Source: Isurus oxyrinchus
Taxonomy: Eukaryota
Reading direction: 5' to 3'
Assembly (NCBI GenBank): GCA_026770705.1
Contig: JANJGN010000052.1
Location: 3,472,001 to 3,536,000 of the forward strand
DNA: 64,000 nucleotides
The position numbers were made by a program, and so were the translations under genes. Of this stretch, positions 1 to 54,769 are shown one piece after another. How positions within the stretch are numbered: the stretch's first letter is position 1; each line of letters opens with the position of its first letter. The notes under the pieces were generated by a model. The model saw only the letters and a list, made by a program, of their open reading frames with translations. It searched no databases and was not told where the DNA came from.

Positions 1-110
1 TTGTAGGGACTGGAGGAGGCTCCTGAGATAGGGAGGGTTGTAGGGACTGGAGGAGGCTCCTGAGATAGAGAGGGTTGTAGGGACTGGAGGAGGCTCCTGC
101 GATAGGGAAT
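1..110. repeat. 37-bp tandem repeat (GGGAGGGTTGTAGGGACTGGAGGAGGCTCCTGAGATA), about 3 copies
   Basis: Repeat is directly visible; a degenerate array of the same family lies at ~38530-39170. Confidence 0.8.
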
Positions 111-179
111 GTTGCCGTGGATGAAGATAAAGGAGGAGATTACTGTAATAGGGAGGAAAAATATTCAATAATTTGGACA

Positions 180-1165
180 TTGAGACTTTGCTTGACCAGG
201 AGCCAGTCTCGGTCATCGAGCAGAGCGGGTGATAAGGGAACGGGACTTGGTGTGAGTAAGGACGTGGTCAGCAGTTTTGGATGGCCTCAAGTTTATGGAG
301 TGTAGAGCATGTGTTGGAACAGTCGAGTCTGGAGGTAATGAAGGCGTGGATGAGGGTTTCAGCAGCAGATGAGCTGAGACAGGGTGAAGTCGTACGACGT
401 TATGGAGGTGGAAATAGACGGTGTTAGTGAGGGCGCAGATATGAGGCCGGAAGCTCATCTCAGGATCAAATGGGACAACAAAGCTGTGAACAGATTGGCT
501 TCAATCTCAGAGAGCTGCCAGGGAGAGGAATGGAGTTGGTAGCGAGGGAACAGAGTTTGGATCGGGGAATGAAGACAATGGCTTCAGTCTTTCCAATATT
601 TAATTGGAGGGAATTTCTGCCCATCCAGTACTGGATGTCGGATAAGCAGCCTGATAATTTAGCAGCAGTGGAGGAGTCGAGAGAGGTGGTGGTGAGGTAG
701 AGCTGGGGATCCGCAGTGGACAGGTGAAAACTAATACTGTTCAGATGATGCTGCAAAGCCATTGCAAGTGATTCTCTGGCTACGATGAGATGGATAAGAA
801 TGGAGCCAGGGGAGAGCAGTTCCACCCAGCTGGACGACAGTGGAGAGGGGTTGGAGGAGGATGGTGTGGTCGAGCGTGTCAAAGGCTGCAGACAGATCGA
901 GAAGGACGAGGAGGGAAAGTTGACCTTTGTCACAGTCACACAGGATGCCATTTGTGACCTTGATAAGAGCTGTTTCAGCACAGTGGCTGGGGTGGGAACC
1001 TGATTGGAGGGATTCAAACATGGAGTTCCGGGAAAGATGGAACCGGATTCGGGAGATGGAAACACTTTCAAGGACTTTGGAGGGGAAAGAGAGGCTGGAG
1101 ATGGGACGGGGGTTTACACGGACAGTGTGAGGGGTGGAAGGTGTAGTGGGGAGGAGACACTTCAC
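180..1165 (-). mobile_element. Degenerate L2-type LINE reverse-transcriptase fragment
   Basis: RPISSLSFPSKVLE, HCAETALIKVTNGIL, LVLLDLSAAFDTLDH, YWMGRNSLQLNIGKTEAIVF motifs spread over shifted frames. Confidence 0.85.
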
Positions 1166-1385
1166 TCAGGGGGGAGGTGTCATCACCCCTCAGCTCGGTT
1201 TACGTTACAGCTATGATGTGGATTCAATCACACACAATAAGCTCATGGATCTGGGAGCAGAAATAGACAAATCATTAAAAATAGTGACGCTGGTTAACAC
1301 AGCCAAAAAACAAGCAAATCAAACACTATTATTTCCCATTGAGTGTTGGATGTGAATTGGTGAGTAATTATAACACAGCACTTAC

Positions 1386-1763
1386 CAGAAACCTGAAGCT
1401 GGGTTACAGGGTAATAGTTATGGCTCGGACCATTGCCAAATTTTATCGTGAAAAAATAAGGTCCTGCATCTTCCCGTCTGATGTTGTTTATAATCAGGGA
1501 ACAGTCGCCATCTTTCAGGTCTCCAGACAGCCGGGTCCGATGGTGGAACTGTGATAACTCGCGACTGTGATCCTTGGAGTGAAAGGCTATAGACCATTTA
1601 GACCATTTGTTCTGTATGTATCTTCTCATTTTCCAGATTCCGACCTTTGGTTTCTTTACCAAATCTGATGGATAACTGTAATGACATGGAATCTGTACAC
1701 ACGAACCTTCCTGCGCTGTCACCTCTCGTGGAGTGTCACCTTTCCACTCTTGTGACAATCCAA
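1386..1763 (-). CDS. Unit A V-set exon, Siglec-like, essential Arg replaced by Thr (YFFTIK)
   Basis: TCTCTCCCCAG acceptor and G|GTAAGT donor; 378 nt, phase 1-1, open. EGSCVQIPC, GDCSLII and EDAGPYFF give the Siglec V-set Cys pattern (B and E strand Cys, no F-strand Cys). Confidence 0.88.
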
Positions 1764-2385
1764 CTGGGGAGAGAAATATCAATATTTAACTCTGGATGTT
1801 TTGTTGATCCACTAGACTCGATATCCACCCCCTCCATCACTCGGGCACAGTGGCTGCAGTGTGGACCATCTACAGGACACACAATGAACTCCACAAGGTA
1901 TCACACCAGATGGAAGAGAATCCTGGACACAAAAGCGGAAAAGTTCATTCTACATTGGTTCATGGTCCTCAGGACCCTGTTTGTGCAGAAGTCTGCTCTC
2001 CAACAGAACTGAAGTTGGGGACAATGCATTTGGAATTCCACTGTCCGGGGCATTGGGTTAACTTGCTGATTTTGTTTTAAATCTAACATCTATTTTTGGT
2101 CTGTTGCCTTAAAGGGACTGTAACTGGGAGTCAGGTTAATTAGGAATTTTAGGAGTTATGATAGCAGTCTTGTAGTTATGTATGTGCTTGAAATCCTTTA
2201 TTTTGATGACAAATATGTTAATTTATTGTTTTAAATCTCTGAAGGTATTGGTGGAGTTAGTGCTTCTGAATTAAGTGCACACATCTCATAATAAATACAA
2301 ATTGCAAAATCATTATGATAGTGTGACCAGGTTTCTCTCATGGACTTGGTCTGCCTGGCACACATCACCTGCCAAGTGATAACAC

Positions 2386-3678
2386 TGTTGTAATATGCCT
2401 TTCAGGGATAGCAGCATGACATCACTCGAGAGGAAGTGTGTCATGTGATTTTTAGGAGTTGGGCTTGGCTTAAGTAAGTTCGATGTGTATTTGTGTGCGT
2501 TAGGCATAATGTCTATCTTTAAGTTCAAGTTTAGTTTGTATTTCTGTATTTGGGTGTTGAGAAAAGGGGGAACTTGAGTTAAAAAGAAGCCAGCATTCCA
2601 TTGAGGTTTTATGACTGTTGAAGGGAAGTCAAAACAAATACAAGGCATAAGAAACTGTGCTGTTGCCTAGTAACAGTGATCCAGAGGGAAGGACCCACAG
2701 AGACCGAGAAAAACAGAAAAGTACTTTCAGTTCTGTTGAAAGGAGTTGCCAGGAGAAGCAGCAAAGGAGCGGGACAGATAGTCAGTCCCAAAGTAAAGAA
2801 GAAGCCAAAACTGTCGAGTTTGACAGGAGAAAGGGCCCAAGAAAACATTCTAGTCAAATCTGGAAAAGGCCCTGTAAAATGAAGTTAAGAGTGAGGAGCA
2901 GAAGAAGGCTTCAAGCATAAAGGGAGAAAGCAGCAGGACACAGGCCTAAAGCAAAATAGGCTTGTGAGAAGCCAGAAGATCCTAGGAGACACCACAGGTT
3001 GGTGACTCATTACTACGGCCATGTGAAGCCATGGTGTTCCATTGACGTGGCTGAGCATTGGAGAGACAGGGCGTGGAAGGAAGGCTGAATGCACGTGGCG
3101 ATCCAGGGGGCAGGAACATGGGAAGGAGAGTTTGAAATAGTGAAAGTGGACCCGTGTGGAAGGTGTCTGAGTGAAAGTGTCATGTTGGAGAAGATTCCAA
3201 AGTCAGTTATGGAGAGTGGAGATTGGAAACTCTCATATGAAAGAAGCTTTTCAGTGAGACTGGTTGGCTCACAGTGTAACAAGCGTCTGGGGACAGATGA
3301 GACATAGAATTTGTTTCAAGTGGGCTCTGCCACTTGCTTTCAGAATGTTGTGTCCCTGACCACAGGTCGTCTATTGGTTTACACGGACTGTGTACTTAGT
3401 GTGAACATGAGAATATAAGATAGTTATCGTAATTTGTGTTCTACTTATGTATCTGTAAAGGTATAGGTCTGGGTGAAGGAGTAATGTCATATAGTTTGTC
3501 TTTCCTAGTTTAATAAATATTTTATTCTTTTGTTAGACGTTCATCAGATGACTCCTGTGACACTGTTCAGTAGCCGCACTCCACATTCCTAAATAAAAAA
3601 TAAAAGTTAGGACCTATCAAGCTGAGCTACACCCTGGGATCTGACTTGCCCAGTAGTAACATCAGCTGGGATGGTAAC
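2386..3678. mobile_element. Probable solo LTR (also copied at ~41410-42703)
   Basis: TG...GTAACA termini with an internal AATAAA; a related fragment lies at 21120-21650. No convincing TSD. Confidence 0.5.
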
Positions 3679-3889
3679 ACCATCCAGTCCAAGTTTCACT
3701 TTGGCCTGTGAGCAGAACACAGCTCACACAGTTTGGCTGCAGGTGTCTCCCAGCTTTCTATCCTTGTATATCTGTTCTCATGTCCCTGTTCTAAATATCT
3801 GAACCCACAATGTATTTACCCAATGCCGTATCAGTGACTGGTGCCTTTATATCATTATAAAAACATAACATGGTGATCAGTGGTGGCCA

Positions 3890-5655
3890 AACATTCTGGC
3901 AGCAAGATTCAGTACAGGTATGACGTGGTGAACAGCCTGAGATCGAGCTACATGACATGAGACGACCCTCGACGCTTTGGTCAGACCACAACAGAGACAC
4001 AGCATCAGAGAGGGTTGAAATCGCAGTGTACTGACTGCTCAGGAATCCTTTGAAGACACAGTGACGGGAAAGAGCTCAAGTAAAGAGCTGGGGAGCAGAC
4101 GCATCCCTCGTGGTGAGATTACAGCACACGGCCTGTAGGTCAGTGAGTGGGACAGTGTGTATCGCCAGGACCAGCAGCGGGTTAGCTCAGTCAGGGAAAG
4201 CGAGTGACCAGGGTGTGGGCTGGATCGATAGTGAGCGAGGGAGAGTCAAACACACAAAAACCATTGTAAAAATCAGCCCAGAGAAGTTAGTGATTATAAC
4301 GGGCGGCTTCGAGATTGCTGAACAGCAAATTGAATAAAAAACAAAGACTCCATTACTCCGTGGTGTGTTCCTGCCACAACCCGTCTTCGTGGGCGGAGCT
4401 TCGGAAAAGCACATGAAAGGGGCTAAAGCGACACTCATCCCAGGTCCTGTAGGAGAAGGAAGGTCAAAGGAATATTGTCAGAATGTCCACGAAATTCCCC
4501 AGTTTGAACTGGGATGTAGCTGACCGACTATCTGAATTCAGAATGTTTAAACAGCGTACAGAGCTCTGGTTTCCTGATTCAGGTGTGACTGAACCAGACG
4601 AGCAAGCCATAAAAATTCACCTCGCGATTGGGAATGAAGGTCTACACAGGCTGAGCACATCAGGATTAACAGCAGAAGAGCGAAAAGATCCCCAATAGAT
4701 ACGGACGATATTGGAAGACAGGTTCAGAATCAGGTGAAACTCCATATTCATCAACTAGAGTTTATGTCATTTCATCAGCCTACACAATCCATAGACCACT
4801 TCATCAGCCGATGTAGAGAAAAGGGTACGCACTGTGATTTCAAACACACAGCCTGCAGACAGAGTTGTTGAGTTGGTGATTACATCCACTCCCATGGAAG
4901 CCTTCCAGAAAGATCTGCTAGATAAGACCAAAACCTACAGCATTGAAGAGCTACTCAAGGATGGACATAAATACGAAGTGATCCTCGCAGGTCAACGAAG
5001 CTTACAGGTCCTCAGTACAACATCAATTGTTGACACACTCACTAGAACATACAAACCTAGTGAGACGTGTGGAAGGTGTGGCCTTCTGCAGGCACCAAGG
5101 AAATGCCCAGCTTTCCACCAATCCTGCAAGGCTTGTGGCAGAAAGGGCCATTGACAGCGGCAGGGCACGAGAGCAAAGGCTGATGCAGCTACAAAGAGCC
5201 GTGCGCTGATCCAATCAAACCCTGCACAACGGGGAACCTTCAAGCAATAAGAATGACCATCCGCTATCCCATCAGGAACATATACATGTGGTGACTGACA
5301 AACCAGGAAATGGCGATGATGTACACGACGAGACTAGGAGCGGTGATCGATATTCCACCTCTCACACATATCCTGACGTGGCTTGCCAATAAATTGTGGA
5401 TTGTGGTCTTTATTGCTCTCTCTGGGCACATCAAATTAACTGAAAATGTTCCCATAGGGGTGGGATTTTCTGGCCCCACCCACTTCCATGATTGTCCGGT
5501 CCGGCCGAAAGCCAATGGATTTATGTCTGTCCCAGTCTCAGAAACTATCCCATCAGCTCAGTTCATGACATAACATTGAAATATGCAGACAGATTCAACA
5601 ATATTGGCAGGTTCAAGGGAGCGGCAACATTACACCTGCAGGAGAATGCAAGTCT
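3890..5655 (+). mobile_element. Gypsy LTR-retrotransposon remnant (PBS-like TGGCAGCAAG, broken gag, internal deletions)
   Basis: gag N-terminus MSTKFPSLNWD...FRMFKQR; Zn-knuckle-like CGRCG...CPAFHQSCKACGRKGH; stops and frameshifts. Confidence 0.8.
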
Positions 5656-7086: not shown

Positions 7087-7536
7087 TGTCCACTCCCAGA
7101 TATTTCATAAGCTTCTGACTCTCAAACTCTGAAAGAGAAAGGAGTTAATGAGACTTCACCTCTTGTCCGACAGCTCTCAAGAGATCAGAACTGTTTTTGG
7201 ACAATGTCTTGACAGACTAATTTGATTCTCTGTGGGATGATAGGTGCTCTGCAGAGAGTTACAAGGCTTGAAGAATGAAAAACATTAAAGGATTTGCATT
7301 TCTGTAGCACCTTTCACCACCTCAAGACGTCCCAAAGCTCATGTCTCTGCACTTCCCTCATCCCTTGAGCTAGAAAGATGTTCTGTACAACAGACTTGAG
7401 TCTCACACCCAGATCTCAATAACCAGTAGAAATCTTTCAAAGGCATCAATCATTGGAATCTGTCTTAAAAAAGTCACAACATCAACAAAGGGCGGTGTTG
7501 GTGGTGGAAGTGAATTCCAATCGTTCCGTTACTTAC

Positions 7537-7620
7537 CCAGGACCTGTCCGACTGCTCGCCTGGGGAGGAACTGCCCACACGCTCTGCTTGGGCTGAATGA
7601 CCTCTTCCTGTGCTGCTCCC
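7537..7620 (-). other. Unit A putative non-coding first exon
   Basis: Conserved in 5 copies, each ending CTGG|GTAAGT ~400 bp upstream of the leader exon; 5' boundary approximate. Confidence 0.6.
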
Positions 7621-7663
7621 TCTGTGTGTTTAATTAGAAAGGGTGAATGTGTCACTGTGAGAC

Positions 7664-7677
7664 AAAATGAGGAAGTG
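7664..7677. promoter_or_regulatory. PU.1/Spi-type Ets site AAAATGAGGAAGTG, unit A promoter
   Basis: Matches the A-rich GAGGAAGT consensus; same position relative to exon 1 in units B, D and E. Confidence 0.6.
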
Positions 7678-7899
7678 GGTAACCAGTGAGAAGATCGAGG
7701 ATGTTTTGTGCTCTCAGCAAAACGTTTACCATGTGATGATCTGTCAGCTCATATTTGGGCAGCTGTAGTCATGAAGCTTCTCCATTGGCTCCATGGGATT
7801 AGACTCCTCCCCCTCATCTCAGAGGCTGAAACTCAGGCGATAGAGTTCCCAATACAGGTCTCTGGCCTTATGATACATTTCAACGATCCCTGTTATCAT

Positions 7900-9665: not shown

Positions 9666-11494
9666 GGTCTGCACTGTTCTAAGTGCATTCTAGGCACTGC
9701 CCAAGGTTCCGCCTGATGTCTGTGTAACAACAACATCATGTACACGTCGAGAATATTTCCCACTGTTCGGTGCAGCAAGACAGCTTTGGAATGGCACCAC
9801 CACTGACAGGAGTGTGAAACTACAATGTGACATGTTTACATGGGATATTTCTATTATAAAGATGGGCACAGGAATTCGTATGATAGAGAAAATGTGACAA
9901 CATGAAGTAATGTCTTTGAGCCAAAAATTTGGCTTCAAACTAAGAATTTTAATCTATAAATATCTACAGAACAGGCTGAGCATTTTAATCACTTGTGTTA
10001 ATCAATGTAATTTTATTCATAACCCAAATGCTTCTTACAATCTATCGCAGCATGAAAAAGGTGCAGCATTCAGAAAGCACATTCCAATCGGAGAACAGAG
10101 TTTAGCAACGTCACATTTCTGTTCATTCCTATTCGACCATGTTGGCTGCACACAGCCAGACAATGCCGTGGTTATGATGTGTCCACACAGCAGGACTGGG
10201 GAGCACCAGGTATAAGGAAAAGTTTCAGCTTGCTGAGGAGAAGAAGGAGAATCTCTCGTTCCAGGTTTCTCTCCGTACATTAAGAAGCAGGCATGCCGAT
10301 GTTTCATTGCACTCTGTCTGCTGATGGGAGTCCGCTTGGAAATTGCTGTTTGTGCTGATGGAAAGAATAAGCTTTTCATAAATTGTGGGATTGAGAACAA
10401 ACACAGGGAGGATATGCTGAACATTTATAAAGCTCTGGTTAGGTCACAACTAAACTAATGCATGTGTCTGATTTTGGACATGGAACCCAATTCTGTCCTC
10501 AGGACATTGACAGATGGAGAGACCAGATACAGATCAATGCAGGAGGATTATTTATTTTCCCAATCTTTGATCCAAGCATCTCATCAAACACAGAGCGGAA
10601 CCAGGATCAAGGATGTTGGTCTCTGTAATCTGTAACACATCACACAGTCCACCCATCCACTCAGCCTTCAGGATGGATGCTAATTGTACTCTCCAAGTGT
10701 GAAAGACTAAAATTGTGGTTTATTGCAGCTGTATCTCATTCTGTTATCAAAGCTGTCTCATCCATCCATGACATATTGAAGAAGATAAACCTGCAACCAA
10801 TTTTTCACATCATAATTTCCAGTTGTTCATTGGCTATATCAATGTAAACATGTCACATTGTACTGATGAACTCCCATCATTGCTGGCACTGTAGCACATG
10901 TTATCCTCTAAGCTGCAGAGAATTTCTCAAATTTCCAATCAAATTGTTTCCCTGTTTCCCAGATTGTTGTTCGTTTCGCTGTTTAACGATGAAGTGTAAA
11001 ATCCAAATATATTTCTGAAAATACATTTGACTACAAAATGGTGAGTAAATTTTAACAATCTCCTCTGCTCCAATTATCCACCGATGCTGCATTTCCTGAA
11101 GTCTACACTGGCTGATGAATATTCTAAACACTGACAGACAGCAAGGTGAATAACAGAATGAAAATTAACTCATAATCACGGACACGGGATTGAATTTGTC
11201 CGTTCTGTCCTGGTACATCATCGAACGATATCTAAAGACATTTACAATCAGAATGGAGAGAAGGATGTTTCCAACAGTGAGGGACAATTCTGAAGGAGGA
11301 TGTTCGAATTGAAACCCACAGACAATCATCCTGGATAGATCATTCCGAAGAAATTCCATCAGATTGTAACAAGAGGTTTAAATCTATTTCCTGGGAGTGA
11401 GTTCCTGTGGATATTAGGAAGGTAAATTGGAGTTTTGAATGATTCTCCCATTCTGTATTCTCCCCACACTGTGTGTGTCTCATTCTTGCTCAGT

Positions 11495-11611
11495 TTATAA
11501 ATTCCCATAAACAGAATCCTCAGCAAAATCACAGTTTGCGTAAAGATCATCATCTGTATCAGGATTGACTCCGCGGTAAGATTTCATTTCCAGATCCTTC
11601 TCATCTTTCTT
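11495..11611 (-). CDS. Terminal cytoplasmic exon KKDEKDLEMKSYRGVNPDTDDDLYANCDFAEDSVYGNL*
   Basis: TTTCTATTACAG acceptor, phase 0, 117 nt to TAA; acidic tyrosine motifs; conserved open paralog at 54653-54769. Confidence 0.72.
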   Translation of the reverse strand, partial: KKDEKDLEMKSYRGVNPDTDDDLYANCDFAEDSVYGNL

Positions 11612-11709
11612 CTGTAATAGAAACAGAAATGATCAGAGTGACAATCAGAGTGATCAGTGTTTAGTATTATTGATCCAAATCAAAAATTCCACCCACAATA
11701 GATACATTA

Positions 11710-13195
11710 ATTATTGATACTGAACAGGGTTTGATTATTGATTCTGAACGGGGTTTGATTATTGATACTGAACGGGGTGTGATTATTGATACTGAACGGG
11801 GTTTGATTATTGATACTGAACGGGGTTTGATTATTGATTCTGAAAGGGGTTTGATTATTGATTCTGAAAGGGGTTTGATTATGGATTCTGAACGGGGTTT
11901 GATTATTGATCCTGAACGGGGTTTGATTATGGATTCTGAAAGGGGTTTGATTATGGATTCTGAACGGGGTTTGATTATTGATCCTGAACGGGGTTTGATT
12001 ATGGATTCTGAAAGGGGTTTGATTATGGATTCTGAATGGGGTTTGATTATTGATTCTGAACGGGGTTTGATTATTGATTCTGAACGGGGTTTGATTATTG
12101 ATACTGAACGGGGTTTGATTATTGATTCTGAACGGCGTTTGATTATTGATACTGAACGGGGTTTGATTATTGATTCTGAACGGCGTTTGATTATTGATAC
12201 TGAACGGGGTTTGATTATTGATTCTGAACGGCGTTTGATTATTGATACTGAACGGGGTTTGATTATTGACATTGAACGGGGTTTGATTATTGATTCTAAA
12301 CGGTGTTTGATTATTGATTCTAAACGTTGTTTGATTATTGAACCTGAATGGAGTTTGATTATTGATTCTGAACTGGGGTTGAATATTGATACTGAACGGG
12401 GTTTGATTATTGATTCTAAACGGTGTTTGATTATTGAATCTGAATGGAGTTTGATTATTGATACTGAACAGTGTTTGATTATTGATTCTGAACAGTGTTT
12501 GATTATTGAACCTGAACGGAGTTTGATTATTAATTCTGAACAGTGTTTGATTATTGATTCTGAAAGGGGGTTGATTTTTGATACTGAACGGGGTTTGATT
12601 ATTAATTCTGAATGGGGTTTGATTATTGATACTGAATGATGCTTGATTATTGATTCTGAGCGGGCTTTGATTATTGATACTGAACGGGGTTTGATTATTG
12701 ATTCTGAACGGGGTTTGATTATTGATTCTGAACGGGGTTTGAGTATTGATACTGAACGGGGTTTGATTATTGATACTGAACGGAATTTGATTATTGATAC
12801 TGAATGGTGTTTGATTAATGATACTGAACGGGGTTTGATTATTGATTCTGAACGGGGTTTGATTATTGATACTGAACGGGGTTTGATTATTGATACTGAA
12901 CGGGGTTTGATTATTGATTCTGAATGGGGTTTGATTATTGATTCTGAATGGGGTTTGATTATTGATACTGAACGGGGTTTGATTATTGATTCTGAACGGG
13001 GTTTGATTATTGATACTGAACGGGGTGTGATTATTGATTATGAACGGGGTTTGATTATTGATACTGAACGGGGTTTGATTATTGATACTGAACGAGGTTT
13101 GATTATTGAAACTGAACGGGGTTTGATTATTGATACTGAACGGGGTTTGATTATTGATTCTGAACGGGGTTTGATTATTGATTCTGAACGGTGTT
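11710..13195. repeat. 24-bp minisatellite (TTGATTATTGAT[T/A]CTGAACGGGGT), ~60 copies, intronic
   Basis: Direct periodicity; explains the long repeat ORFs in the track. Confidence 0.95.
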
Positions 13196-13324
13196 GGGTG
13201 TGAGTTTGGTTGGGTTTGGGAGTGACTGTATAAAACATTGCAGATACAGGACTGGAGCAGCCATATCAATAACCAGGCTACTGGAGCAGCTGAGAGGCTG
13301 GGGATCCTGTGGTGTGTGACTCAC

Positions 13325-13429
13325 CTGATTCCTCAAAGCCCAACCACGCTCACAGTTTTCATAAACAGGACCTCGATATTCATCAACACGGTGGCTCGAT
13401 TTGATTCCTGCTTTCCCCTCGCCTCTCTT
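13325..13429 (-). CDS. Internal cytoplasmic exon KRGEGKAGIKSSHRVDEYRGPVYENCERGWALRNQ
   Basis: CTCTATTACAG acceptor, CAG|GTGAGT donor; 105 nt, phase 0-0, open; splices in frame to 11611. Confidence 0.7.
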
Positions 13430-13777: not shown

Positions 13778-14150
13778 AAAGATGTTCTGTACAACAGACT
13801 TGAGCCTCACACCCAGATCTCAATAATCAGTAGAAATCTTTCAAAGGCATCAATCATTGCAATCTGTCTTTATAAAGTCACAACATCAACAAAGGATGGT
13901 GTTGGTGGTGGAAGTGAATTCCAATCGTTCCGTTACTTACCCAGTACCTGTCCGACTGCTCGCCTGGGGAGGAACTGCCCACACGCTCTGCTTGGGCTGA
14001 ATGACCTCTTCCTGTGCTGCTCCCTCTGTGTATTTAATGAGAAAGGGTGGATGTGTCTCTGTGAGTCAAATCAGGAATTGGGGAACAATTGTGAAAACCG
14101 TTTCACTGAAACGTAGGGCCTTAGTGTTGTGTTGTAAGCAAACCGTTAAC
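13778..14150 (-). promoter_or_regulatory. Orphan promoter plus non-coding exon 1 cassette (donor after 13941); no leader follows
   Basis: Near-identical to 7375-7700; AP-1 TGAGTCA at 14062-14068; PU.1 site degraded to AAATCAGGAATTG. Confidence 0.65.
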
Positions 14151-14781: not shown

Positions 14782-14878
14782 TTTCTCACACACTTGAAGA
14801 TGAAGAATCCACTCAGTCCAACACTCAAACAGATTCCAGCTCCAAGCAATCCTGCTTTCCATTCATTGGAATCTCGCC
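14782..14878 (-). CDS. Unit B transmembrane exon (W)RDSNEWKAGLLGAGICLSVGLSGFFIFKCVRK
   Basis: TTTTACAG acceptor, AA|GTAAGT donor; 97 nt, phase 1-2; uncharged hydrophobic span; paralog at 32724-32820. Confidence 0.85.
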
Positions 14879-16130: not shown

Positions 16131-16412
16131 ATTCCACAGTGATGGTTATGAATCCCTCCACTGCTCCATGTTCATTCTCTGCCACACACTGATAGTCTCC
16201 AGTGTCCCTGGATGTAACGTGAGGAATCACCAACCACAGCTCATTGTTGGAACTTGTTCTGTTCATTGGGACATTAAGATGTCGCCACGTCAGGTTAGAA
16301 GCTGGGAAGCTCTCGACAGAGCAGATTATCACTGCAGAATTCCCCTCAATTATATTGATCGATGAAGCGTTAATCATATCAAGAGAAGTAATTGATGGGT
16401 TCCGTGGTGCAT
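16131..16412 (-). CDS. Unit B membrane-proximal Ig (C2/I-set) exon, copy 2
   Basis: 282 nt, phase 1-1, AG/GT present; APRNPSI...IICSVESFPASNLTW...DTGDYQCVAENEHG. Confidence 0.9.
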
Positions 16413-17488
16413 CTAAATACAAATAAAGGTTTCATTGTGAGCAAACACAGTGCACAGCAAGACTCCATGATACATCTCCCTCTATTTGGTGCCTATGTGC
16501 ATTTCAAGGTTTCTGTCCTGTTTTAAGTTCCTATGTCAACTTTTATAATGGTCACTGCTGGTGTTTTTCTTTTTGTACATTCATGGGAAGTGGATGTATC
16601 TATCTAGACCAGCATTTATTACCCATCCCTAATTGCCCTTGAGGAGGTGGTGGTGAGTTTTTCACCCCCACAGAATTCCCAGCCTCTGACCGGCTCCTGT
16701 AGCCACAGTATTTATGGCCGGTCCAGTTAGTAGTTTGGTTAACACCCCCCAGGATGTTGATTGTGGGGGATTCAGTGATAGTAAACTCACTGAACATCAA
16801 GGGGAGATGGTTAGATTCTCTCTTGTTGGAGATGATCACTGCCTGGTGCTTGTGTGGTGTGAACGTTACTTGTCATTTCTCAGTCCAAGCTGAGTGTTGT
16901 TCAGCTCTTGCTGCGTGTGGATATGTAAACTGTCACGCTGTAATTACAGCCTTCCACCAGAGGAGACACTGTCGGGCTAGGAGAAAAGAAAATGTCTTTC
17001 ACATCATCAGGATGTTCACAGGGATTTGACAGTGGAGGAATTGCTTTAGAATAATGGGGTATTGAGTGATAAACCTACAATTCTCTGTGCAGGGGGCTGC
17101 TCGTCCAATACAGGGTCTTGTTCAGCTGATGTCGTCAGTGTTTCAGAGCAGAATCTGGAGCAACACTCCAGTGCAGCACAGGGAGAACAGACAACTCACA
17201 CATGTCTGTGTGTGTGTGAGCAAGCACACGTGTGATTCTGTGTATGTTTCCTTCTGTGTGTGTGCATGCAGGTGTACACACCTGTGCACATGTGGGATTG
17301 CACATGAATGCTTGTTTGTGTGCNNNNNNNNNNNNNNNNNNNNNNNNNNNNNNNNNNNNNNNNNNNNNNNNNNNNNNNNNNNNNNNNNNNNNNNNNNNNN
17401 NNNNNNNNNNNNNNNNNNNNNNNNNNNNNNNNNNNNNNNNNNNNNNNNNNNNNNNNNNNNNNNNNNNNNNNNNNNNNNNNTAACTCAC

Positions 17489-17770
17489 ATTCCACAGTGA
17501 TGGTTATGAATCCCTCCACTGCTCCATGTTCATTCTCTGCCACACACAGATATTCTCCAGTATCCCTGGATGTAACGTGAGGAATCACCAACCACAGCTC
17601 ATTGTTGGAACTTGTTCTGTTCATTGGGACATTAAGATGTCGCCACGTCAGGTTAGAAGCTGGGAAGCTCTCGACAGAGCAGATTATCACTGCAGAATTC
17701 ACCTCAATTATATTGATCGATGAAGCGTTAATCACATCAAGAGAAGTAATTGAGAGATTCTGTGGTCCAT
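17489..17770 (-). CDS. Unit B Ig (C2/I-set) exon, copy 1
   Basis: 282 nt, phase 1-1; GPQNLSI...CSVESFPASNLTW...DTGEYLCVAENEHG. Confidence 0.9.
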
Positions 17771-17899
17771 CTAAAAACAAATAAACATCAATTAAGTTAC
17801 ACTGACTGTGAAGCACTTTGAAAGACACTGAGAATGTGAAAGGTTTGATATCAATATAGGTTCTTTCACCACAAAGCCCATAATCCAGCCAGACACCTC

Positions 17900-18495
17900 A
17901 GTTCAGTACTGAGGGTGTGCTGCACTGTGGGAGGGTCAGTACTGAGGGAGTGCTGCACTGTCAGAGGGTCAGTACTGAGGGAGTGCTGTACTGTCGGTGG
18001 GTAAGTACTGAGGGAGTGCTGCACTGTCAGAGAGTCAGTACTGAGGGAGTGCTGCACTGTCAGAGGTTCAGTACATAGGGACTGCTGCACTGTCTGATGG
18101 TCAGTACAGAGGGGTTGCTGCACTGTCGGAGGGTCAGAAATGAGGATGTGCTGCACTCTCAGAAGGTCAGTACTGAGTGGGTGCTGCACTGTCGAAGAGT
18201 CATTACTGAGGGGGTGCTGCACTGTGGGAGGGTCAGTACTGAGGGAGCACTGCACTGTTGAAGGGTCAGTACTGAGGGAGTGCTGCACTGTCGAAGGGTC
18301 AGTACTGAGGGAGTGCTGCACTGTTAGAGGGTCAGTACAGAGGGAGTGCTGCACTGTCAGAGGGTCAGTACTGAGGGAGCACTGCACTGTTGAAGGGTCA
18401 GTACTGAGGGAGTGCTGCACTGTCAAAGGGTCAGTACTGAGGGAGTGCTGCAGTGTTGGAGAGTCAGTATTCAAGGACTGCTGCAGTGTCAGAGG
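17900..18495. repeat. 33-bp Deu-SINE-like minisatellite in unit B intron
   Basis: About 18 copies of GTCAGTACTGAGGGAGTGCTGCACTGT... Confidence 0.85.
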
Positions 18496-18614
18496 CGGAT
18501 TTGTATCAGTTAAAGACTATTGATTTGTTGCTAAACACAATGCAGTTGTGGGATCTTGCAGTGTACTATGTAGAGCATTCTAGCTAATGTAGATGGAAGG
18601 GTGTCTGTTCTTAC

Positions 18615-18911
18615 CTTGCACAGTTAGTACGAGGGTCTTCTCCGATGAAACAGATGGATATCTCACTCTGCAGCTTAGAGTGTGTCCGTGGTGTTTGAGT
18701 GATGGGATCAGGGTCAGAACAGAAGTATAGGTCAGAGTGACACCATGATGAGTTACAGTGTTTGAGACTGATCCAGGTACGTCAGTGGGAATGTCCCAGG
18801 ATAAGACAGGTGCTGCTGTTCCACTGCACGTTGTGTTGAAGGTGCAGCTTACATCCACACGCTCTCCTGCATTAATTTCAGCAGGGAATATCGTGGGTTT
18901 ATCTGTGAAAT
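18615..18911 (-). CDS. Unit B Siglec domain-2 C2-set exon
   Basis: 297 nt, phase 1-1; DFTDKPTIFPAE...VSCTFNTTCSG...LSW...YTSVLTLIP...LSCRVRY; extra Cys fits the Siglec interdomain disulfide. Confidence 0.9.
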
Positions 18912-19941
18912 CTAACAGACAGAGAATGGATCCTTTTAGAGAAATATAACGTGAAGCATCAGTTCAAATAGAAACCACAGTCCCACAAGAGAAAGCACTT
19001 TTACAAGGATGATATCAGAACTGAGATGTTTTAACGATCCTGATAGACTGTTAGACACGATTCGAGAGATCGATGGGAGTGGAATACATTTAATCATTGA
19101 TATTAAAGTGAGTTTTAAATGTTGCTTTAGGACTGAACTGGAAGCTATCACCAGGTTATTGAGAATCAGACATTGTGTTATAATAAGCTGTGTTTTGTGT
19201 TAATATGTAAACGTCACAGTTTCACTTCATTGGCTGTGAATCAGTTTAGGATCGTCCTGAGGTGGTGAAAGGCGCTATGGAAATGTGAGACTTGCTTTTG
19301 TATTTTGAAAGCAGGTTTCCAAGGATGAGATGGGAACTGAGAGGTAACAACAATCAGCAGCAACTTTCCTATTTTCAAACTTGGTGGGGAATGTGTCACT
19401 GAGCTGAATACACTTTCACTCCCAGACCCTTGAATTGCCAACACTGGGGTGTGGGTGATGGAGCAGTCCACAGCTCATGGAACCCTGGCTCATCATTCTC
19501 TCAGAGATCTGGGTCACTGATCCCATTGCTCTCTGTGGGAGCTTCCTGTGAACAAACTCACTGCCACGTTAGACAGTGACTATACTTCAAGAATTTCTTC
19601 ATTGTCTGTGAAGTGATTTGGTACATGGTGAAAGGTGCTATAGAAATGCAAGTCTTTACTTTGTCAATTTGCCAGACTTTTAAATAGGGATTAGAGAGTT
19701 CTATGTGAGTGGATAACCTGATAACATTGATGGACACAGTCAACACATTTAATCATTGATATTAAAGTGAGTATTAGAGGTTGCTTTAGGACTGAACTGG
19801 AAGCTATCACCAGGTTGTTGAGAATCAGACAGTGTGTTATAATAAGCTGTGTTTTGTGTTAATATGTAAACGTCACAGTTTGTGTTATTTCCCACTGAGT
19901 GTTGAATGTGAATTGTTGAGTAATTATAACACAGCACTTAC

Positions 19942-20307
19942 CAGAAATGTGAAGCCGGGTTACAGGGTAATAGTTATAGCGCGGACCATTGTCAAATTCT
20001 ATTCTGAAAAAATAAGGTCCTGCATCTTCCCGTCTGATGTTGTTTATAATCAGGGAACAGTTGCCATCTTTCAGGTCTCCAGACAGCCGGGTCCGATGGC
20101 GGAACCGTGGTAACTCGTGACGGTGATCCTTGGAGTGAAAGGCTATGGACAATCTTCTCCGTTCCTCATTATTAAACCAGACTCCACCTCGTGGTTGGCT
20201 GTCCAAATGTGCTGGATAACTGTAATGACATGGAATCTGTACACACGAACCTTCCTGCGCTGTCACCTCTCGTGGAGTATCACCTTTCCACTCTTGTGAC
20301 AGTCCAA
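19942..20307 (-). CDS. Unit B V-set exon with essential Arg (YFFRIE)
   Basis: 366 nt, phase 1-1, open, canonical splice sites; Arg codon at 20003-20005. Confidence 0.92.
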
Positions 20308-21119
20308 CTGGGGAGAGAAAAATCAATATTTAACTCTGGATGTTTTTTCGATCCATAATTCTTGATATCCACTCCCTCCATCACTGGGGCACAGTGGCTG
20401 CAGTTTGGACCATCTACAGGACACACAAGTAACTCCCCAAGGTTTCACAATGGATCGATGAGAGTCCTGGACACAGGAGTGGACAAGTTCATTCTACCTT
20501 GGCTCCTGGTCCTCAGGACTCTATTTAGTTTTTTCAAATTATTCATTCATGGGATTTATTACCCATCCCATGTCCATCAGAGGCATTTAATAGTCAACCA
20601 CATTGCGGTGGGATTGGAGTGACATGTAGGGCACACTGGGTAAGGGTCGCAGATTTCCTTCCCTTATGGTGATCAGTGAACCAGGCTTTTTAATCCCATT
20701 CATCTGCCGTGATGGAATTCACACCCAGGGCCCCAGAGCATCACCCTTGGTCTCTGGAATACTAGCCCAGTGACAATACCTCTCTGCTACCGCTTCCCCT
20801 TAGTGAAGCCAGTCTTCTACCCAACACAGTGTCTACAAGACGCACTAATTGAGATCCATTCAGTGCTGATTTACAAGACAGGACAATGGATTAGGAGCCC
20901 TCAGAACTCCCCCCATTATCACCGTCATGAATCACTAATTAGCCTAACATTCTTGTCTGCTCTTCAACACAGCTGATTGAATCAGATTAGCCAATCTGAT
21001 TGGTGTTCATTCCCTCTTCAATGTTTAAGGAATCACCAATCACTCGGCCTCTAGTTATTCTCCTTCCCACAAGAGGGAACATTCTCTGTCTACCCAGTCA
21101 ATCAAAACATTTCATCTAA

Positions 21120-21650
21120 ACCTAGTGGTGCTTGAGTATATAGTCGGGAATCCAGGGCAATGGAGCCTCAGGAGAAGAGATGGAAACCCTGTGAGGTGGA
21201 ACGTCACTGAGGCCATCCGAGTTGAAGCGACTTTTGGAGAGAATTCCAAGGCAAGATCTTCGAAGTTGAAGATTGGAATCCCTCATGAGAGAAACAGAGT
21301 TTCAGTGAGATTGGTTGACTGACAGTGTTCACTGATGTCCGGGTGGGTTGTTGTGAAATCCATGGGCTCTATCTTGGTCGTGTTTACAATTTAATGAGTA
21401 ATGTGGCTGTGAGACCACAGTTTGCCTGTTAATTCACATGAGCTCATGTTAATCCAGAATGTTAGGGTATAAGGTGGATATTGTGAATTATTTTATCTTT
21501 CTGAACTGGGGCAGTCAAGTTTATTTTTGTTTGTTTAAAATCCATGGAATCTTGTAGCTTTATTCTCTTTGCAAGCGTCTTAAATCTCAAACCTCGTCTA
21601 CTTGAAACAAAATATTATTGGTTCCTAACTATAAGTTTTCAAAAAAATTG
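21120..21650. mobile_element. LTR-like fragment related to 3100-3600
   Basis: Shared GAGAATTCCAAG...TTTCAGTGAGATTGGTTG blocks. Confidence 0.45.
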
Positions 21651-22487
21651 GGTGCCTGTTCCTCCATCAGCAACTCTTCAGAATCCTGCTGAAGTCACGG
21701 ATATTTCAGAAGGACAGGGAACAAGAGGTTCCTGGTATCAGCGTTTTGTGTGGGGCCCAGTTCAGTTAGAACAAATAAACAACACCATCTTTGAAAGTCA
21801 TGAACCCACCACAGCGGCACCTCCGACACATGCAGAGCTCAGGCGAGAGGCGCTTTGTTAGTGTGTTTCACAGGGTCTGCTGGAGTAGGGTCAGTGCTGA
21901 GAGGGTCTGCTCAAGGATCATAACAACCTGCACTTGCACCTTCCAAGTAATAAGATTTTGTAAATGTATTCATTCATGGGATGTGGGCGTCGCTGCCAAG
22001 GCCAGCATTTGCTGCTCATCCCTAATGTCCCGTGACATAATCTCTGTAGCAGAGTAGAGACAATCATGATCACTCAGGATATTTGACATCTATCCACATG
22101 AGCAGCTTAGGCTTCCTTCTCTCTTTCAGTTATCTTACTCCCTTATTGAAGTTTCTAGCATGGTGAGAACTGGATGGTTTGCTCGGACATTTCAGAGGAA
22201 CCACGTTGCTATGAGTCTGGAGTCACATGTAGGCCAGACCAGATATAGACGGCAGATTTCCTTCCCTAAAGGCCATTAGTGAACCAGATGGGTGTGTATG
22301 ACAATCGATGATAGTTTCATGGTCTCCATTACTGAGACTAACTCCCATTAGTGTAAACAGAGTGAACAGTTTTCCATTGATCCCACCTTTCCCGTTCTCT
22401 CCGGTATTTTACACACTATTGCTCGATAATTTGATTCTGCCAAGGACCCCTTGGAAAATCATGGACCCCAGTTAGACAACCAATGGA

Positions 22488-22660
22488 ATAAGGAATCTCT
22501 TTGGATCCTCATTGTCTAAGGAATCTCTATGGATTCTCATTGTCTAAGGAATCTCTTTGGATCCTCATTGTCTAAGGAATCTCTATGGATTCTCATTGTC
22601 TAAGGAATCTCTTTGGATCCTCATTGTCTAAGGAATCTCTTTGGATCCTCATTGTCAAAG
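22488..22660. repeat. 28-bp tandem repeat (AAGGAATCTCT[T/A]TGGAT[C/T]CTCATTGTCT), about 6 copies
   Basis: Direct periodicity with two alternating variants. Confidence 0.85.
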
Positions 22661-23848
22661 GGATTATTTCTGATCCAAACCCCATATTGTTGTATTGTTG
22701 ATTCCGATGCAGCATTGTAGACTGACTTGTCCCCAAGATCAGCACTGACCCTACTCCAGCTGACACTGTGAAACACACTAATAAAGTGCCTCTAGCCTGA
22801 GCTCTGCATGTGTCGGAGGTGCCGCTGTGTTTGGTTCATGATTTTCAAAGATGGTGTTGTCATTTTTTTTGTTCCAACTGAACTGGGTCCCACATGAAGT
22901 GTTGATACCAAAAACCTTGTGTTCCCTGTCCTTCTGAAACATCTGTGATTCAGCAGGATTCTGAAGATTTGCTGATAAGGGTCTTAAACTGTCTGATTGT
23001 TGATTGATACAACACAGGAGGAGCTCATGTGACCCATCGTGCATGTGCTGACTCTTTCCCAATTCCTCTCCAACACCTTTCGCACATTCCTGCAAATTTC
23101 CCTTCAAGAATTTATCCAGTTCCCCTTCTGAAAGTTCCTGTTGAATCTGCTTCCACCGCTCTTTCAGGCAGTGAGGCAATGGTCTCTCTCTGAGCTGCAA
23201 AGTGCCCAGATTCCGTGAAATTTAAACTATGCAGCAGATCAGAGACACTCATGATAACTAAGAATATTTGACACCTTTACACACAGACAGCTTTGCCTTT
23301 CTTCTCTCTTTCAGTTATCTTGCTCCCTTATTGAAGTATCTAGCATGGTGAGAATGGACAGGAAGTGTGACACTGAACAGCCTGTCTATTCTAGGAGCTG
23401 CTGTGTTGTCTTCATGGGCAATTTTGAATAAAGGCAGCAAAGGATACAAATTTCAGGCCATTGCTATCAGAGACCTAACATTAGGATAGACTTCATCCCC
23501 CAGTTTTTATCCCTGCTTCTCTACTCAACCCATTACTCCCCATCGCTCACTGACCATCGTCCGACAGCACCTGAATTTCAAGATTCTGCTCTCGCTGCTA
23601 CAAACCTGCCTATCCCTGTAAACTCCTCCAGCCCCTACAACCCTTCAAGACCACTGGTCTCCACCAATTCTGCTGTCAGACAGGGAGTCAGTGTATATCA
23701 GTGAGCACAGGGCTGATGTTTGAATGGGACTTGGTGTGAGTTTGTACACTGGATCACTGCTGAATCAGTTCCCTATCAGAGCTCAATAAGAATGATCTTT
23801 AACAAAGACTATTAACCATAAGTCTGTCCGAGCTGACAATGGTATTAC

Positions 23849-23888
23849 CTTGGAGAAGTGACAGGAGGAAGTAAGATTTCCCGATCAT
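23849..23888 (-). CDS. Unit B leader exon, intact (spliced signal peptide MIGKSYFLLSLLQVGLS/QEW)
   Basis: ACAATG start, 40 nt, CAAG|GTAATA donor, phase 1 matching the V exon; acceptor at 23931-23932. Confidence 0.85.
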
Positions 23889-24321
23889 TGTCCACTCCCA
23901 GATATTTCCTCAGCTTCTAACTCTGAAGTTCTGAAAGAGAAAGGAGTTAATGAGACTTCACCTCTTGTCCGAATGCTCTTGAGAGATCAGAACTGCTTTT
24001 AGACAATATCTTCACAGACAAATTTGATTCTCTGTGGGATGATAGGTGCTCTGCAGAGAGTTACAAGGCTTTAAGAAAGAAAAACAATGAAGGACTTGCA
24101 TTTCTATAGCACCTTTCACCACCTCAGGACGTCCCCACGCTCATGTCCCTTGAGCTAGAAAGATGTTCTGTACAACAGACTTGAGCCTCACACCCAGATC
24201 TCAATAATCAGTAGAAATCTTTCAAAGGCATCAATCATTGGAATCTGTCTTTATAAAGTCACAACATCAACAAAGGACGGTGTTGGTGGTGGAAGTGAAT
24301 TCCAATCGTTCCGTTACTTAC

Positions 24322-38529: not shown

Positions 38530-39170
38530 TTGTAGGTGCTGTAGTTTGTACAGAGGCTGTAGAGAGGCTACAAATTAGGAAAATTTGGAGAGGCTGTAGG
38601 AGTTCACAGAGCTAGGGAGAGTTGTAAAGTTTGCAGGAGGTTACAGAGATAGGGAGGGTTGTAGGGGCCGGAGGAATTACAGTGAAAGGGGGGTGGGTGT
38701 AGGGACTGGTGGATGTTACAGGGTAAGGGGGGCATTAGGGGCATGAGTAGGTTACAGAGACAGGGGGTTTGGAGGGACTGGAGAAATTTACAGTGAAAGG
38801 GAGGCTTTAGGGGATAAAGATGGTGACAGAGATAGGGAGGCTGGATGGGAATGGGAAATGTTATGGAGATAGGAGGTTTGTAGGTACAGGATGGGGTTAT
38901 AGAGATTGGGAGGGTTATAGGGACTGGAGGAGGTTACAGAGATAGAGAGTGCTGTAGGGACTGGAGGACGTTACAGAGATAGGGGTTGTTGCAGCGGTTG
39001 GAGAAGATTACAGAGAAATGGACCGTTGTTGGAGCTGGAAGAGGTTTATGAGGTAGGGGTGGTTATAGGGACTGAAATAATTAACAGAGACTAGGAGTGT
39101 TGTAGGGGCTGGAGGAGGTTACAGAGATAGGGAGGGTTGTAGGGGCTGGAGGTGGAAGATGAGATTACAG
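38530..39170. repeat. Degenerate ~37-bp tandem array
   Basis: GGTTGTAGGGGCTGGAGGAGGTTACAGAGATAGGGA variants. Confidence 0.7.
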
Positions 39171-39204
39171 GGATAATGAGGAAACAAAGATGTAAATTTT
39201 GACA

Positions 39205-40190
39205 TTGAGACTTTGCTTGACCAGGAGCCAGTCTCGGTCATCGAGCAGAGCGGGTGATAAGGGAATTGGATTTGGTGTGAGTAAGGACGTGGTCAGCAGT
39301 TTTGGATGGCCTCAAGTTTATGGAGTGTGGAGCGTGTGTTGGAACAGTCGAGTCTGGAGGTAGTGAAGGTGTGGATGAGGGTTTCAGCAGCAGATGAGCT
39401 GAGACAGGGTGATGTCGTGCGATGTTACGGAGGTGGAAATAGACGGTGTTAGTGAGGGTGCAGATATGAGGCCGGAAGCTCATCTCAGGATCAAATGGGA
39501 CAACAAAGCTGGGAACAGATTGGCTTCAATCTCAGAGAGCTGTCAGGGAGAGGAATGGAGTTGGTAGCGAGGGAACAGAGTTTGGATCGGGGAATGAAGA
39601 CAATGGCTTCAGTCTTTCCAATATTTAATTGGAGGGAATTTCTGCCCATCCAGTACTGGATGTCGGATAAGCAGCCTGATAATTTAGCAGCAGTGGAGGA
39701 GTCGAGAGAGGTGGTGGTGAGGTAGAGCTGGGGATCCTCAGTGGACAGGTGAAAACTAACACTGTTCAGATGATGCTGCAAAGCCATTGCAAGTGATTCT
39801 CTGGCTACGATGAGATGGATAAGAATGGAGCCAGGGGAGAGCAGTCCCACCCAGCTGGACGACAGTGGAGAGGTGTTGGAGGAGGATGGTGTGGTCGAGC
39901 GTGTCAAAGGCTGCAGACAGATCGAGAAGGACGAGGAGGGAAAGTTGACCTTTGTCACAGTCACACAGGATGCCATTTGTGACCTTGATAAGAGCTGTTT
40001 CAGCACAGTGGCTGGGGTGGGAACCTGATTGGAGGGATTCAAACATGGAGTTCCGGGAAAGATGGGAAAGGATTTGGGAGATGGAAACACGTTCAAGGAC
40101 TTTGGAGGGGAAACAGAGGCTGGAAATGGGACGGGGGTTTACACAGACGGTGTGAGGGGTGGAAGGTGTAGTGGGGAGGAGACACTTCAC
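39205..40190 (-). mobile_element. L2-type LINE fragment (duplicate of 180-1165)
   Basis: Same ORF fragments, offset ~39.0 kb. Confidence 0.85.
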
Positions 40191-40410
40191 TCAGGGGGGA
40201 GGTGTCATCACCCCTCAGCTCGGTTTACGTTACAGCTATGATGTGGATTCAATCACACACAATAAGCTCATGGATCTGGGAGCAGAAATAGACAAATCAT
40301 TAAAAATAGTGACGCTGGTTAACACGGCCAAACAAAAAGCAAATCAAACACTATTATTTCCCATTGAGTGTTGGATGTGAATTGTTGAGTAATTATAACA
40401 CAGCACTTAC

Positions 40411-40788
40411 CAGAAACGTGAAGCTGGGTTACAGGGGAAACGTTATGGCTCCGACGATTGCCACATTTTATCGTGAAAAAATAATGTCCTGCATCTTCCC
40501 GTCTGATGTTGTTTATAATCAGGGAACAGTCGCCATCTTTCAGGTCTCCAGACAGCCGGGTCCGATGGTCGAACTGTGATAACTCGTGACTGTGACCCTT
40601 GGAGTGAAAGGCTATAGACCATTTAGACCATTTGTTCCGTATGTACCTTCTCATTTTCCAGATTCCGACATGTGGTTTCTTTACCAAATGTGATGGATAA
40701 CTGTAATGACATGGAATCAGTACACACGAACCTTTCTGCGCTGTCACCTCTCGTGGAGTGTCACCTTTCCACTCTTGTGACAATCCAA
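40411..40788 (-). CDS. Unit C first V-set exon, Arg replaced by Thr (YFFTIK)
   Basis: 378 nt, phase 1-1, open; paralog of 1386-1763. Confidence 0.88.
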
Positions 40789-46963: not shown

Positions 46964-47103
46964 TCAAACAGTCTGTCGACTTCCTTTCACTGTTTGTCTC
47001 TCCCAGACACAGACTCCAGCGATAGTGATAACCACAGCCACAAGGAATAGCACAGCTCGTATTCCCAGGATCAGGATCACGTGCAGAATCTCTCCTCCAC
47101 TGT
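46964..47103 (-). CDS. Unit D activating-type TM plus short tail exon: SGGEILHVILILGIRAVLFLVAVVITIAGVCVWERQTVKGSRQTV*
   Basis: TTCTGTGCGTTCTCTAG acceptor, phase 1 like the upstream Ig exons; open to TGA; Arg (47057-47059) inside the hydrophobic span; no Tyr in the tail. Confidence 0.78.
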
Positions 47104-51520: not shown

Positions 51521-51970
51521 CGTCCACTCCCAGATATTCCATCCACTTCTCACTCTCAAGCTGTGAAAGAGAAAGGAGTTAATGAGACCTCACCTCTTGT
51601 CCGACAGCTCTCGAGAGATCAGAACTGCTTTTAGACAATGTCTTCACTGACTAATTTGATTCTCTGTGGGATGATAGGTGCTCTGCAGAGAGTTACAAGT
51701 CTTTAAGTAAGACAAACAATGATTGATTTGCATTTCTATAGCACCTTTCACTATCTCAGGGCATCCCAAATCTCATGTCTCTGCAGTTCTCTCATCCCTT
51801 GAGCTAGAAAGATGTTCTGTACAACAGACTTGAGCCTCACACCCTGATCTCAATAATCAGTAGAAATCTTTCAAAGGCATCAATCATTGGAATCTGTCCT
51901 TATAAAGTCACAACATCAACAAAGGACAGTGTTGGTGGTGGAAGTGAATTCCAATCGTTCCGTTACTTAC

Positions 51971-52111
51971 CCAGGACCTGTCCGACTGCTCGCCTGGGGA
52001 GGAACTGCCCACACGCTCTGCTTGGGCTGAATGACCTCTTCCTGTGCTGCTCCCTATTTGTGTTTAATTAAAAAGGGTGCATGTGTCACTGTGAGTCAAA
52101 ATGAGGAAGTG
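51971..52111 (-). promoter_or_regulatory. Unit D non-coding exon 1 and composite AP-1/PU.1 site
   Basis: TGAGTCA at 52092-52098 abutting AAAATGAGGAAGTG at 52098-52111. Confidence 0.62.
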
Positions 52112-52214
52112 CTTGGTACCAAGTGAGAAAGCAACTCTTTGCCTCGCACTGTTAGAAAACTGTTAACCCTTTGCGTGCCAATAATGTGGTTGACGGGCCA
52201 TCGACTGTTCATAT

Positions 52215-54652: not shown

Positions 54653-54769
54653 TTATAAATTCCCATAAACAGAATTCTTGGCAAAATCACAGTTTGCGTA
54701 AAGATCATCATCTGTATCAGGATTGACTCCGCGGTTAGATTTCATTTCCAGATCCTTCTCATCTTTCTT
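54653..54769 (-). pseudogene. Orphan terminal cytoplasmic exon ...DDDLYANCDFAKNSVYGNL*
   Basis: Open 117-nt paralog of 11495-11611 with acceptor intact; no upstream exons, Gypsy remnant begins at ~54879. Confidence 0.68.

Follow-up and report, generated by a model that had tools for sequence, protein, structure and literature searches.

Two exons of a shortfin mako cluster, termed T1 and T2, end the gene of a shark Siglec-like receptor. The three YxN motifs of its tail would probably dock adaptors of the Grb2 family once phosphorylated, which would set the receptor apart as a third signalling class, next to the ITIM-type and Arg-TM genes of the cluster. The window (the whole stretch of 64,000 nucleotides of Isurus oxyrinchus DNA that was analysed) is a tandem Ig-gene cluster in a 4.98-Gb genome and holds the gene complete. 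Nine coding exons with GT-AG sites give a single open frame of 556 codons, which encodes a signal peptide, a V-set domain, three C2-type domains, an uncharged transmembrane (TM) segment and a tail of 102 residues (Table 1). Three of the six tail Tyr lie in YxN motifs (Y506, Y542 and Y553), a number reached in 0.1% of 100,000 composition shuffles. Upstream of the signal-peptide exon lies a 5′UTR exon, U5, which is non-coding, as in-frame stops precede the ATG. An earlier, sequence-only reading of this DNA had described a two-exon tail. Both of its exons are real, in phase 0 and spliced; however, the tail has three exons, and T0 (14025-13941) had been overlooked, as had the TM exon, the whole ectodomain, which the window contains at 16131-23930, and the high number of copies.

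Table 1. Features of the Siglec-like gene and related elements in the window
Feature	Position	Strand	Evidence
U5: 5′UTR exon, 3′ 85 nt	24322..24406	-	Joint 23930/24322 with CT..AC ends in contigs of run X1; near-identical joint in X6 and X7; near-identical to T0
Signal-peptide exon, ATG at 23888	23849..23930	-	Joint 20307/23849 in X1, X3 and X7; N-terminus matches RefSeq shark models
Siglec-type V-set, F-strand Arg (FFRIE)	19942..20307	-	Pfam V-set 3e-12, Ig_CD22 6e-10; best PDB matches Siglec-5, sialoadhesin, Siglec-10, -7, -8, CD33 and MAG
C2-set domain 2 with extra Siglec cysteine	18615..18911	-	Pfam C2-set_2; Cys-to-Cys alignment with CD33 domain 2
Ig domain 3	17489..17770	-	Pfam Ig_3/I-set; 96% identity to the Ig domain 4 exon
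Ig domain 4	16131..16412	-	Pfam; joint to TM exon 14878/16132 in X1 and X7
TM exon, phase 1 to 2, Gly-rich, core without charged residue, juxtamembrane Cys	14782..14878	-	76% identity to the TM exon of unit C (ITIM-type neighbour gene); kept in shark RefSeq models
T0: first tail exon, 85 nt, phase 2 to 0	13941..14025	-	One of two open linker candidates; T0-T1 loose end in X1; RefSeq models from three shark orders contain the peptide
225-nt block: T0 and 140 nt of intron, common to U5	13801..14025	-	T0-U5 identity 96-98% inside, 35-70% in flanks; chimeric loci
T1: tail exon, 105 nt, AG/GT, phase 0-0, YENC (Y506)	13325..13429	-	Splice sites; contig joins; YENC in 7/7 homologues having T1
24-bp minisatellite, about 62 copies, bulk of T1-T2 intron	11710..13195	.	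Length differs among paralogues
T2: last coding exon, 117 nt, phase 0, YANC (Y542)-x7-YGNL (Y553) and stop	11495..11611	-	Canonical splice sites; contig joins; homologues
Candidate polyA signal, first AATAAA 3′ of the stop	10719..10724	-	Motif only
Orphan second T2 copy, no T1 upstream	54653..54769	-	Sequence similarity

By its domains and alignments the gene is a Siglec-like receptor, and sialic-acid binding is predicted. The top 17 PDB matches of the V domain are all Siglecs or MAG (E 5e-17 to 5e-12), and Pfam Ig_CD22 lies above its cut-off. In the F strand, FFRIE aligns with FFRVE of Siglec-5 and NFRFE of sialoadhesin, and the aligned Arg is presumably the sialic-acid ligand Arg of Siglecs. 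Alignments to Siglec-5, sialoadhesin and CD33 domain 2 recover the Siglec cysteine pattern: two Cys in the strand B region, one in the E strand, none in the F strand, and an extra Cys in domain 2. C2-set domains and a single TM are also present. The feature of the CD33-related subgroup, either an ITIM plus ITIM-like tail or a charged TM, is not conserved here, the ITIM consensus occurring in 6/17 homologues and the TM being uncharged. Elsewhere in the window, two V exons (1294-1785 and 40319-40810) have Thr in place of the sialic-acid Arg.

The place of T0 follows from the reading frame. The TM exon ends in phase 2 and therefore cannot join T1 in the YxN frame, so that an 85-nt exon running from phase 2 to 0 is needed between them. 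A second linker candidate, 13718-13499 (220 nt), was rejected for want of support in contigs or RefSeq models, and a direct TM-to-T1 splice was rejected as the main form because the frame shifts and a stop falls inside T1. The TM exon (KD 1.97 over 19 residues) was absent from a hydrophobicity scan at KD >2.0 and was recovered by DNA similarity to unit C. Pfam returned no family for the TM exon, T0, T1 or T2.

Evidence for splicing comes from contigs of 6 runs among 21 listed, none of them recorded as RNA; that they derive from RNA is a guess made from their GT-AG joins only. Besides the upstream joins of Table 1, two X1 contigs depart from the T1 locus at 13430 in a 16-letter end that matches the last letters of T0, and at 13325 two X1 contigs carry an 11-letter end that matches the first letters of T2. 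The evidence for the T1-T2 join, whose intron holds the 1.5-kb minisatellite, thus consists of loose contig ends. T1 has no cover in contigs of X5, X7 and X8. The private allele of this copy at 13395 occurs in no contig, and the X1 contigs carry the common allele, so that the splicing evidence is for the family and not for this copy. One X1 contig joins the TM exon to T1 with GT-AG ends, apparently skipping T0. The frameshift in this product gives a short, Tyr-free tail with a stop 8 nt before the last junction. Under the decay rule for stops close to the last junction, the T0-skipped transcript would probably escape decay.

The same TM-T0-T1-T2 tail is found in RefSeq models of six sharks. 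These are Carcharodon (XP_041037222-225, named ‘myelin-associated glycoprotein-like’), whose T2 is 92% identical, and Cetorhinus, Mustelus, Rhincodon, Stegostoma and Hemiscyllium, which bear the automatic names ‘Siglec-13-like’ or ‘CD33-like’. The join between 13325 and 11611 and the conservation of its frame, on which the sequence-only reading had staked the tail, are accordingly both present, the former in public contigs and the latter in these models. A search with T2 returned two white shark models, one with TM-T0-T1-T2 and one skipping T1. In the white shark (P0001-P0004, XP_041037222-225; isoform X2 skips T1) the tail follows a different, MAG-like V domain without the Arg, which suggests head-tail shuffling or a fused model. 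Tail searches also reached basking shark, Mustelus, whale shark, zebra shark, epaulette shark and catsharks. When 50% representatives were searched with a profile, the best 150 matches brought in bamboo shark and also five batoids (skate, two stingrays, manta and sawfish). The five batoid proteins, chosen from 149 matches partly by their tails, a choice that favours the motif, have a last exon ending in a double YxN, behind a different TM. As the double-YxN end occurs in sharks and rays, it predates their split; T1 was seen only in galeomorph sharks. The best 150 profile matches held no bony-fish or tetrapod tail of YxN type, a weak indication of its range.

Within the tail, conservation centres on Asn. 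In a set of 17 T2-bearing proteins from sharks and rays, from which duplicate isoforms and models without T2 were excluded, Asn at +2 is kept at Y542 in 15/17 and at Y553 in 17/17; at Y506 it is kept in 7/7, and the neighbouring residues vary. The three YxN motifs proposed at the outset are thereby upheld. Position +3 of the first T2 Tyr is Cys in 15, Trp in 1 and Phe in 1, and that of the last Tyr is V in 9, I in 4, L in 2, K in 1 and M in 1; position -2 of the last Tyr is S in 8, A in 6 and P in 3. The two T2 Tyr are separated by x7 in 16 proteins and x6 in 1, and D/E residues lie upstream in this copy. Conservation does not extend to the remaining three Tyr of this copy (Y530 is present in 1/38 T2 reads, overlapping loci included). 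Two paralogues lack the Asn at Y542 yet keep the Cys (YKSC). A divergent TM-T0-T2 paralogue outside the main cluster, L102 (G000:C34:15128602-15135102), which matches white and basking shark models P0010 and P0011, ends in YKSC-x7-YVNV.

An old exon duplication as the common origin of T1 and T2 is supported, mainly by DNA. Their acceptors share the reading CTATTACAG followed by AAG across the splice site, the common context from which duplication had first been proposed. With flanks included, their DNA alignment reaches a score of 86, and 500 shuffles average 20.5 with a maximum of 34; the exons alone score 31 (shuffle max 27). Likeness at the protein level is weak, 121/2000 shuffles being as high. 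The earlier claim that this tail type differs from the tail of unit C also holds. T2 has only a short match to the latter (19/2000 shuffles as high), and a common origin of the two is not claimed. The tail of unit C (29938-30186 and 32722-32820 of the window) has LLYANP at its ITIM position, as does white shark, and other sharks have LYANI, LYASI or LYINV; the end reads TEYAQI.

Several known receptors resemble the shark protein in part. CD33-related Siglecs, sialoadhesin and MAG share with it a V-set domain with the essential Arg, a strand A Trp, the Siglec cysteines and C2 domains. CD33-related Siglecs are likewise clustered, with inhibitory and activating types paired; in contrast to them, the shark gene has a tail without conserved ITIM/ITSM and a TM without Lys/Arg, the comparison being one of features. 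CD22 (Siglec-2) is described as a Siglec with a Grb2-binding YEN motif (PMC5302901; PMC3342095). It has one Grb2 site and three ITIMs, whereas YxN are the only conserved Tyr motifs of the shark tail.

Another set of parallels is found in the adaptors LAT, LAB/NTAL, SIT and TRIM, which carry several YxN in a short tail and a juxtamembrane Cys, as here. LAT-type adaptors are single genes and are not known to have an Ig ectodomain. Their ectodomain is very short, while the shark gene has four Ig domains, and the likeness is taken as one of working only. LAT is described with three distal YXNX sites (PMC3291652), and YGNL is reported in both SIT and TRIM (PMC2193021). In SIT this is the Y90 motif, one of two Grb2 consensus sites; PMC2193021 treats it as a potential Grb2 site, binding not being shown there. 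SIT is elsewhere reported to bind Grb2 inducibly and to dampen TCR signals (PMC3177817). A further example is prolectin (CLEC17A), a glycan-binding receptor whose phosphorylated tail is reported to co-purify with Grb2 via YXNX (PMC2709368). However, prolectin has a C-type lectin fold and SH3 motifs too, and belongs to an unrelated family.

YxN is described as the motif of the Grb2 SH2 domain (PMC2709368; PMC3291652; PMC4810170). Because Asn at +2 is invariant at the last Tyr, and none of the 17 homologues fits the ITAM consensus and 6 fit that of the ITIM, docking of Grb2-family adaptors is the best reading of the tail. The V-set domain would bind sialylated glycans via its conserved Arg, and on clustering the tail Tyr, preceded by acidic residues, would be phosphorylated by a Src- or Syk-family kinase. 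The phosphorylated YxN would then be bound by the SH2 domain of Grb2, Grap or Gads, and these adaptors would bring SOS or Gab/PI3K, giving a signal without a DAP12/FcR-gamma partner and without SHP-1. T1, as a duplicate of a T2-type exon, would have given galeomorph sharks a third site in addition to the original two. For the net effect there is a modest lean towards co-stimulation over dampening, because the cluster has a separate ITIM-type class. Either direction is allowed, since known Grb2 sites can also dampen: the Grb2 site of CD22 is reported to dampen calcium, acting via PMCA (PMC5302901), and SIT is a second case (PMC3177817).

Alternative readings of the tail Tyr turn on the same 17 homologues, scored with the ITAM and ITIM consensus of PMC2832619 as given in that source. 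The sequence-only reading had noted ITAM-like spacing, and Y542 and Y553 could form a non-canonical ITAM or hemITAM that engages the tandem SH2 domains of Syk/ZAP-70, with Cys in place of Leu. The spacer of seven, or once six, residues falls within the ITAM range, acidic residues lie upstream, 16/17 homologues have a hydrophobic residue or Cys at +3 of both Tyr, and the +3 Cys persists where Asn is lost. This reading is nevertheless unlikely, as L or I at +3 of both Tyr, and hence YxxL/I at both sites (PMC2832619), occurs in 0/17, the last +3 being V in nine, K in one and M in one. The invariant residue is instead the Asn at +2, the duplicated exon T1 has the first motif only, and ITAM adaptors are already the predicted partners of the Arg-TM genes in the cluster. 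Binding by a single Grb2 SH2 domain does not account for the +3 Cys of the first two motifs or for the fixed 10-11 residue Tyr spacing, and these two features keep a partner with tandem SH2 domains alive as a rival. It is similarly improbable that the last Tyr serves as an ITIM, making the receptor inhibitory through SHP-1/SHP-2 with the Grb2 sites helping, as in CD22. The SVYGNL of this copy does fit the consensus [ILVS]xYxx[LV], as the earlier reading had stated, and CD22 is described as coupling Grb2 and ITIMs (PMC3342095; PMC5302901). Across the family the evidence for an ITIM is mixed, however, the consensus being found in 6/17 homologues and missed in 11/17, where -2 is A or P, or +3 is K or M. 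In other sharks a proper ITIM and TEYAxI-type ends belong to the sister class with a homologous TM, which indicates that the two tails diverged.

A last alternative concerns this copy and not the family, namely that it is a silent or decaying duplicate of a real tail family, its motifs serving trafficking or nothing. The cluster is huge and unstable, with orphan and broken copies, and the private allele at 13395 is missing from the contigs. Against this, the nine coding exons are open with GT-AG sites and the motifs are kept across sharks and rays. The endocytic Yxx-hydrophobic pattern is not known to need Asn at +2. Silence or decay is thus very unlikely, and Grb2-family docking is retained as the preferred reading.

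Copy numbers in the genome were counted by exact motif, with reversed controls at 0; exact matching undercounts, and uncollapsed haplotypes or false duplications may overcount. On this basis the first of the two exons, T1, has at least 85 exact copies on 14 contigs and the last, T2, at least 124. The uncharged TM type of the YxN-tail gene has 92 exact copies and the unit C-type tail end 104, and the core of the Siglec-type V exon has at least 707 (contigs C52, C71, C121, C150, C189 and others). The Arg-TM exon is present in at least 40 copies; 20 of these were read, and all 20 combine the Arg with a short tail. A single contig contains 22 TM+T1+T2 sets. The 20 T1 loci closest to this copy, selected for the frame check by that closeness (L041-L060), have the order TM-T0-T1 in 20/20; 18 are in frame, one of them with a non-GT donor, and 2 are frameshifted. 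Seven further loci with a TM exon (L061-L068) include 5 in frame through T2 and 2 broken ones. T1 copies without an exact TM motif were considered as promoter-driven headless tails, an idea dropped when a TM exon was found in 10/10 such loci and in an 11th (L057).

The cluster has other features of arrangement. V exons run at ~2.3 kb spacing, and long segments repeat with identical V-exon spacing, which could be recent duplications or assembly doubles. Positions 1-3839 and 39026-42863 of the window form a recent segmental duplication of 96% identity, and 4178-5539 is matched by an inverted copy at 62640-64000. The Arg-TM exon of unit E (46970-47104) has an intramembrane Arg and a short Tyr-free tail. 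The orphan T2 is preceded upstream by open frames of retroelement-like type (55.7-58 kb) and by an inverted segment.

T0 has a twin in the 5′UTR exon. With 140 nt of its intron it is 96-98% identical to U5 and the U5 intron, and identity drops to 35-70% in the flanks (23 T0 and 3 U5 sequences). The block at 14025-13801 recurs in the window at 24406-24182, 7372-7692, 51806-52130 and 58787-59094. As the T0 peptide can be recognised in sharks of three orders, T0 is an old exon that has stayed like U5, which suggests that the two may be kept alike by gene conversion. A tree of T0 and U5, with no starred branches and only 3 U5 rows, was uninformative.

This shared block also marks loci that have lost the tail. 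Eighteen TM loci have no exact T1 motif close by, and 7 of them are chimeric: the TM exon is followed by the T0 upstream flank, the shared block, the U5 downstream flank and a signal exon, T1 and T2 being lost. The seven may descend from one event, and in the 3 that were read the frame ends a few residues past T0. The other 11 comprise eight with a variant T1, two with other deletions and the T1-less paralogue L102; on the contig of the window, 12/37 T2 motifs have no exact T1 motif within 4 kb. In white and basking shark, RefSeq models (P0017, P0008 and P0009) join T0 to the first exons of the next gene, through either recombination in the block or read-through. A broader and rather doubtful picture takes the third Siglec class as a glycan-reading head wired to a LAT-like trivalent Grb2 scaffold that would build cross-linked Grb2-SOS networks. 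Its valence would be tunable: three in the full form, two when T1 is skipped, and none when T0 is skipped or T1 and T2 are deleted by T0/U5 recombination. The T0/5′UTR twin, kept by conversion, would then serve the cluster, with its ~700 V exons, as a ready-made junction at which tails are shed.

Siglecs are usually sorted into ITIM-bearing inhibitors and activators with a charged TM. The tail described here is a real, conserved and uncharacterised variant of this known receptor family, whose proteins RefSeq already lists with automatic names. A search of open-access article texts found none that deals with the tails of shark Siglecs or with this cluster. The whale shark genome paper names Siglecs once (PMC8455134), and bony fish are described with four conserved Siglecs and no CD33-related ones (PMC7226832). 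Here a cartilaginous fish adds a very large Siglec-like cluster (at least 707 V-motif matches) with a third tail type kept from sharks to rays, and the T0/5′UTR twin offers a concrete mechanism for tail loss within the cluster. The YxN tail yields short peptides that are directly testable. If it docks Grb2, it would represent an ancient form of lectin signalling, independent of both phosphatase and ITAM adaptor.
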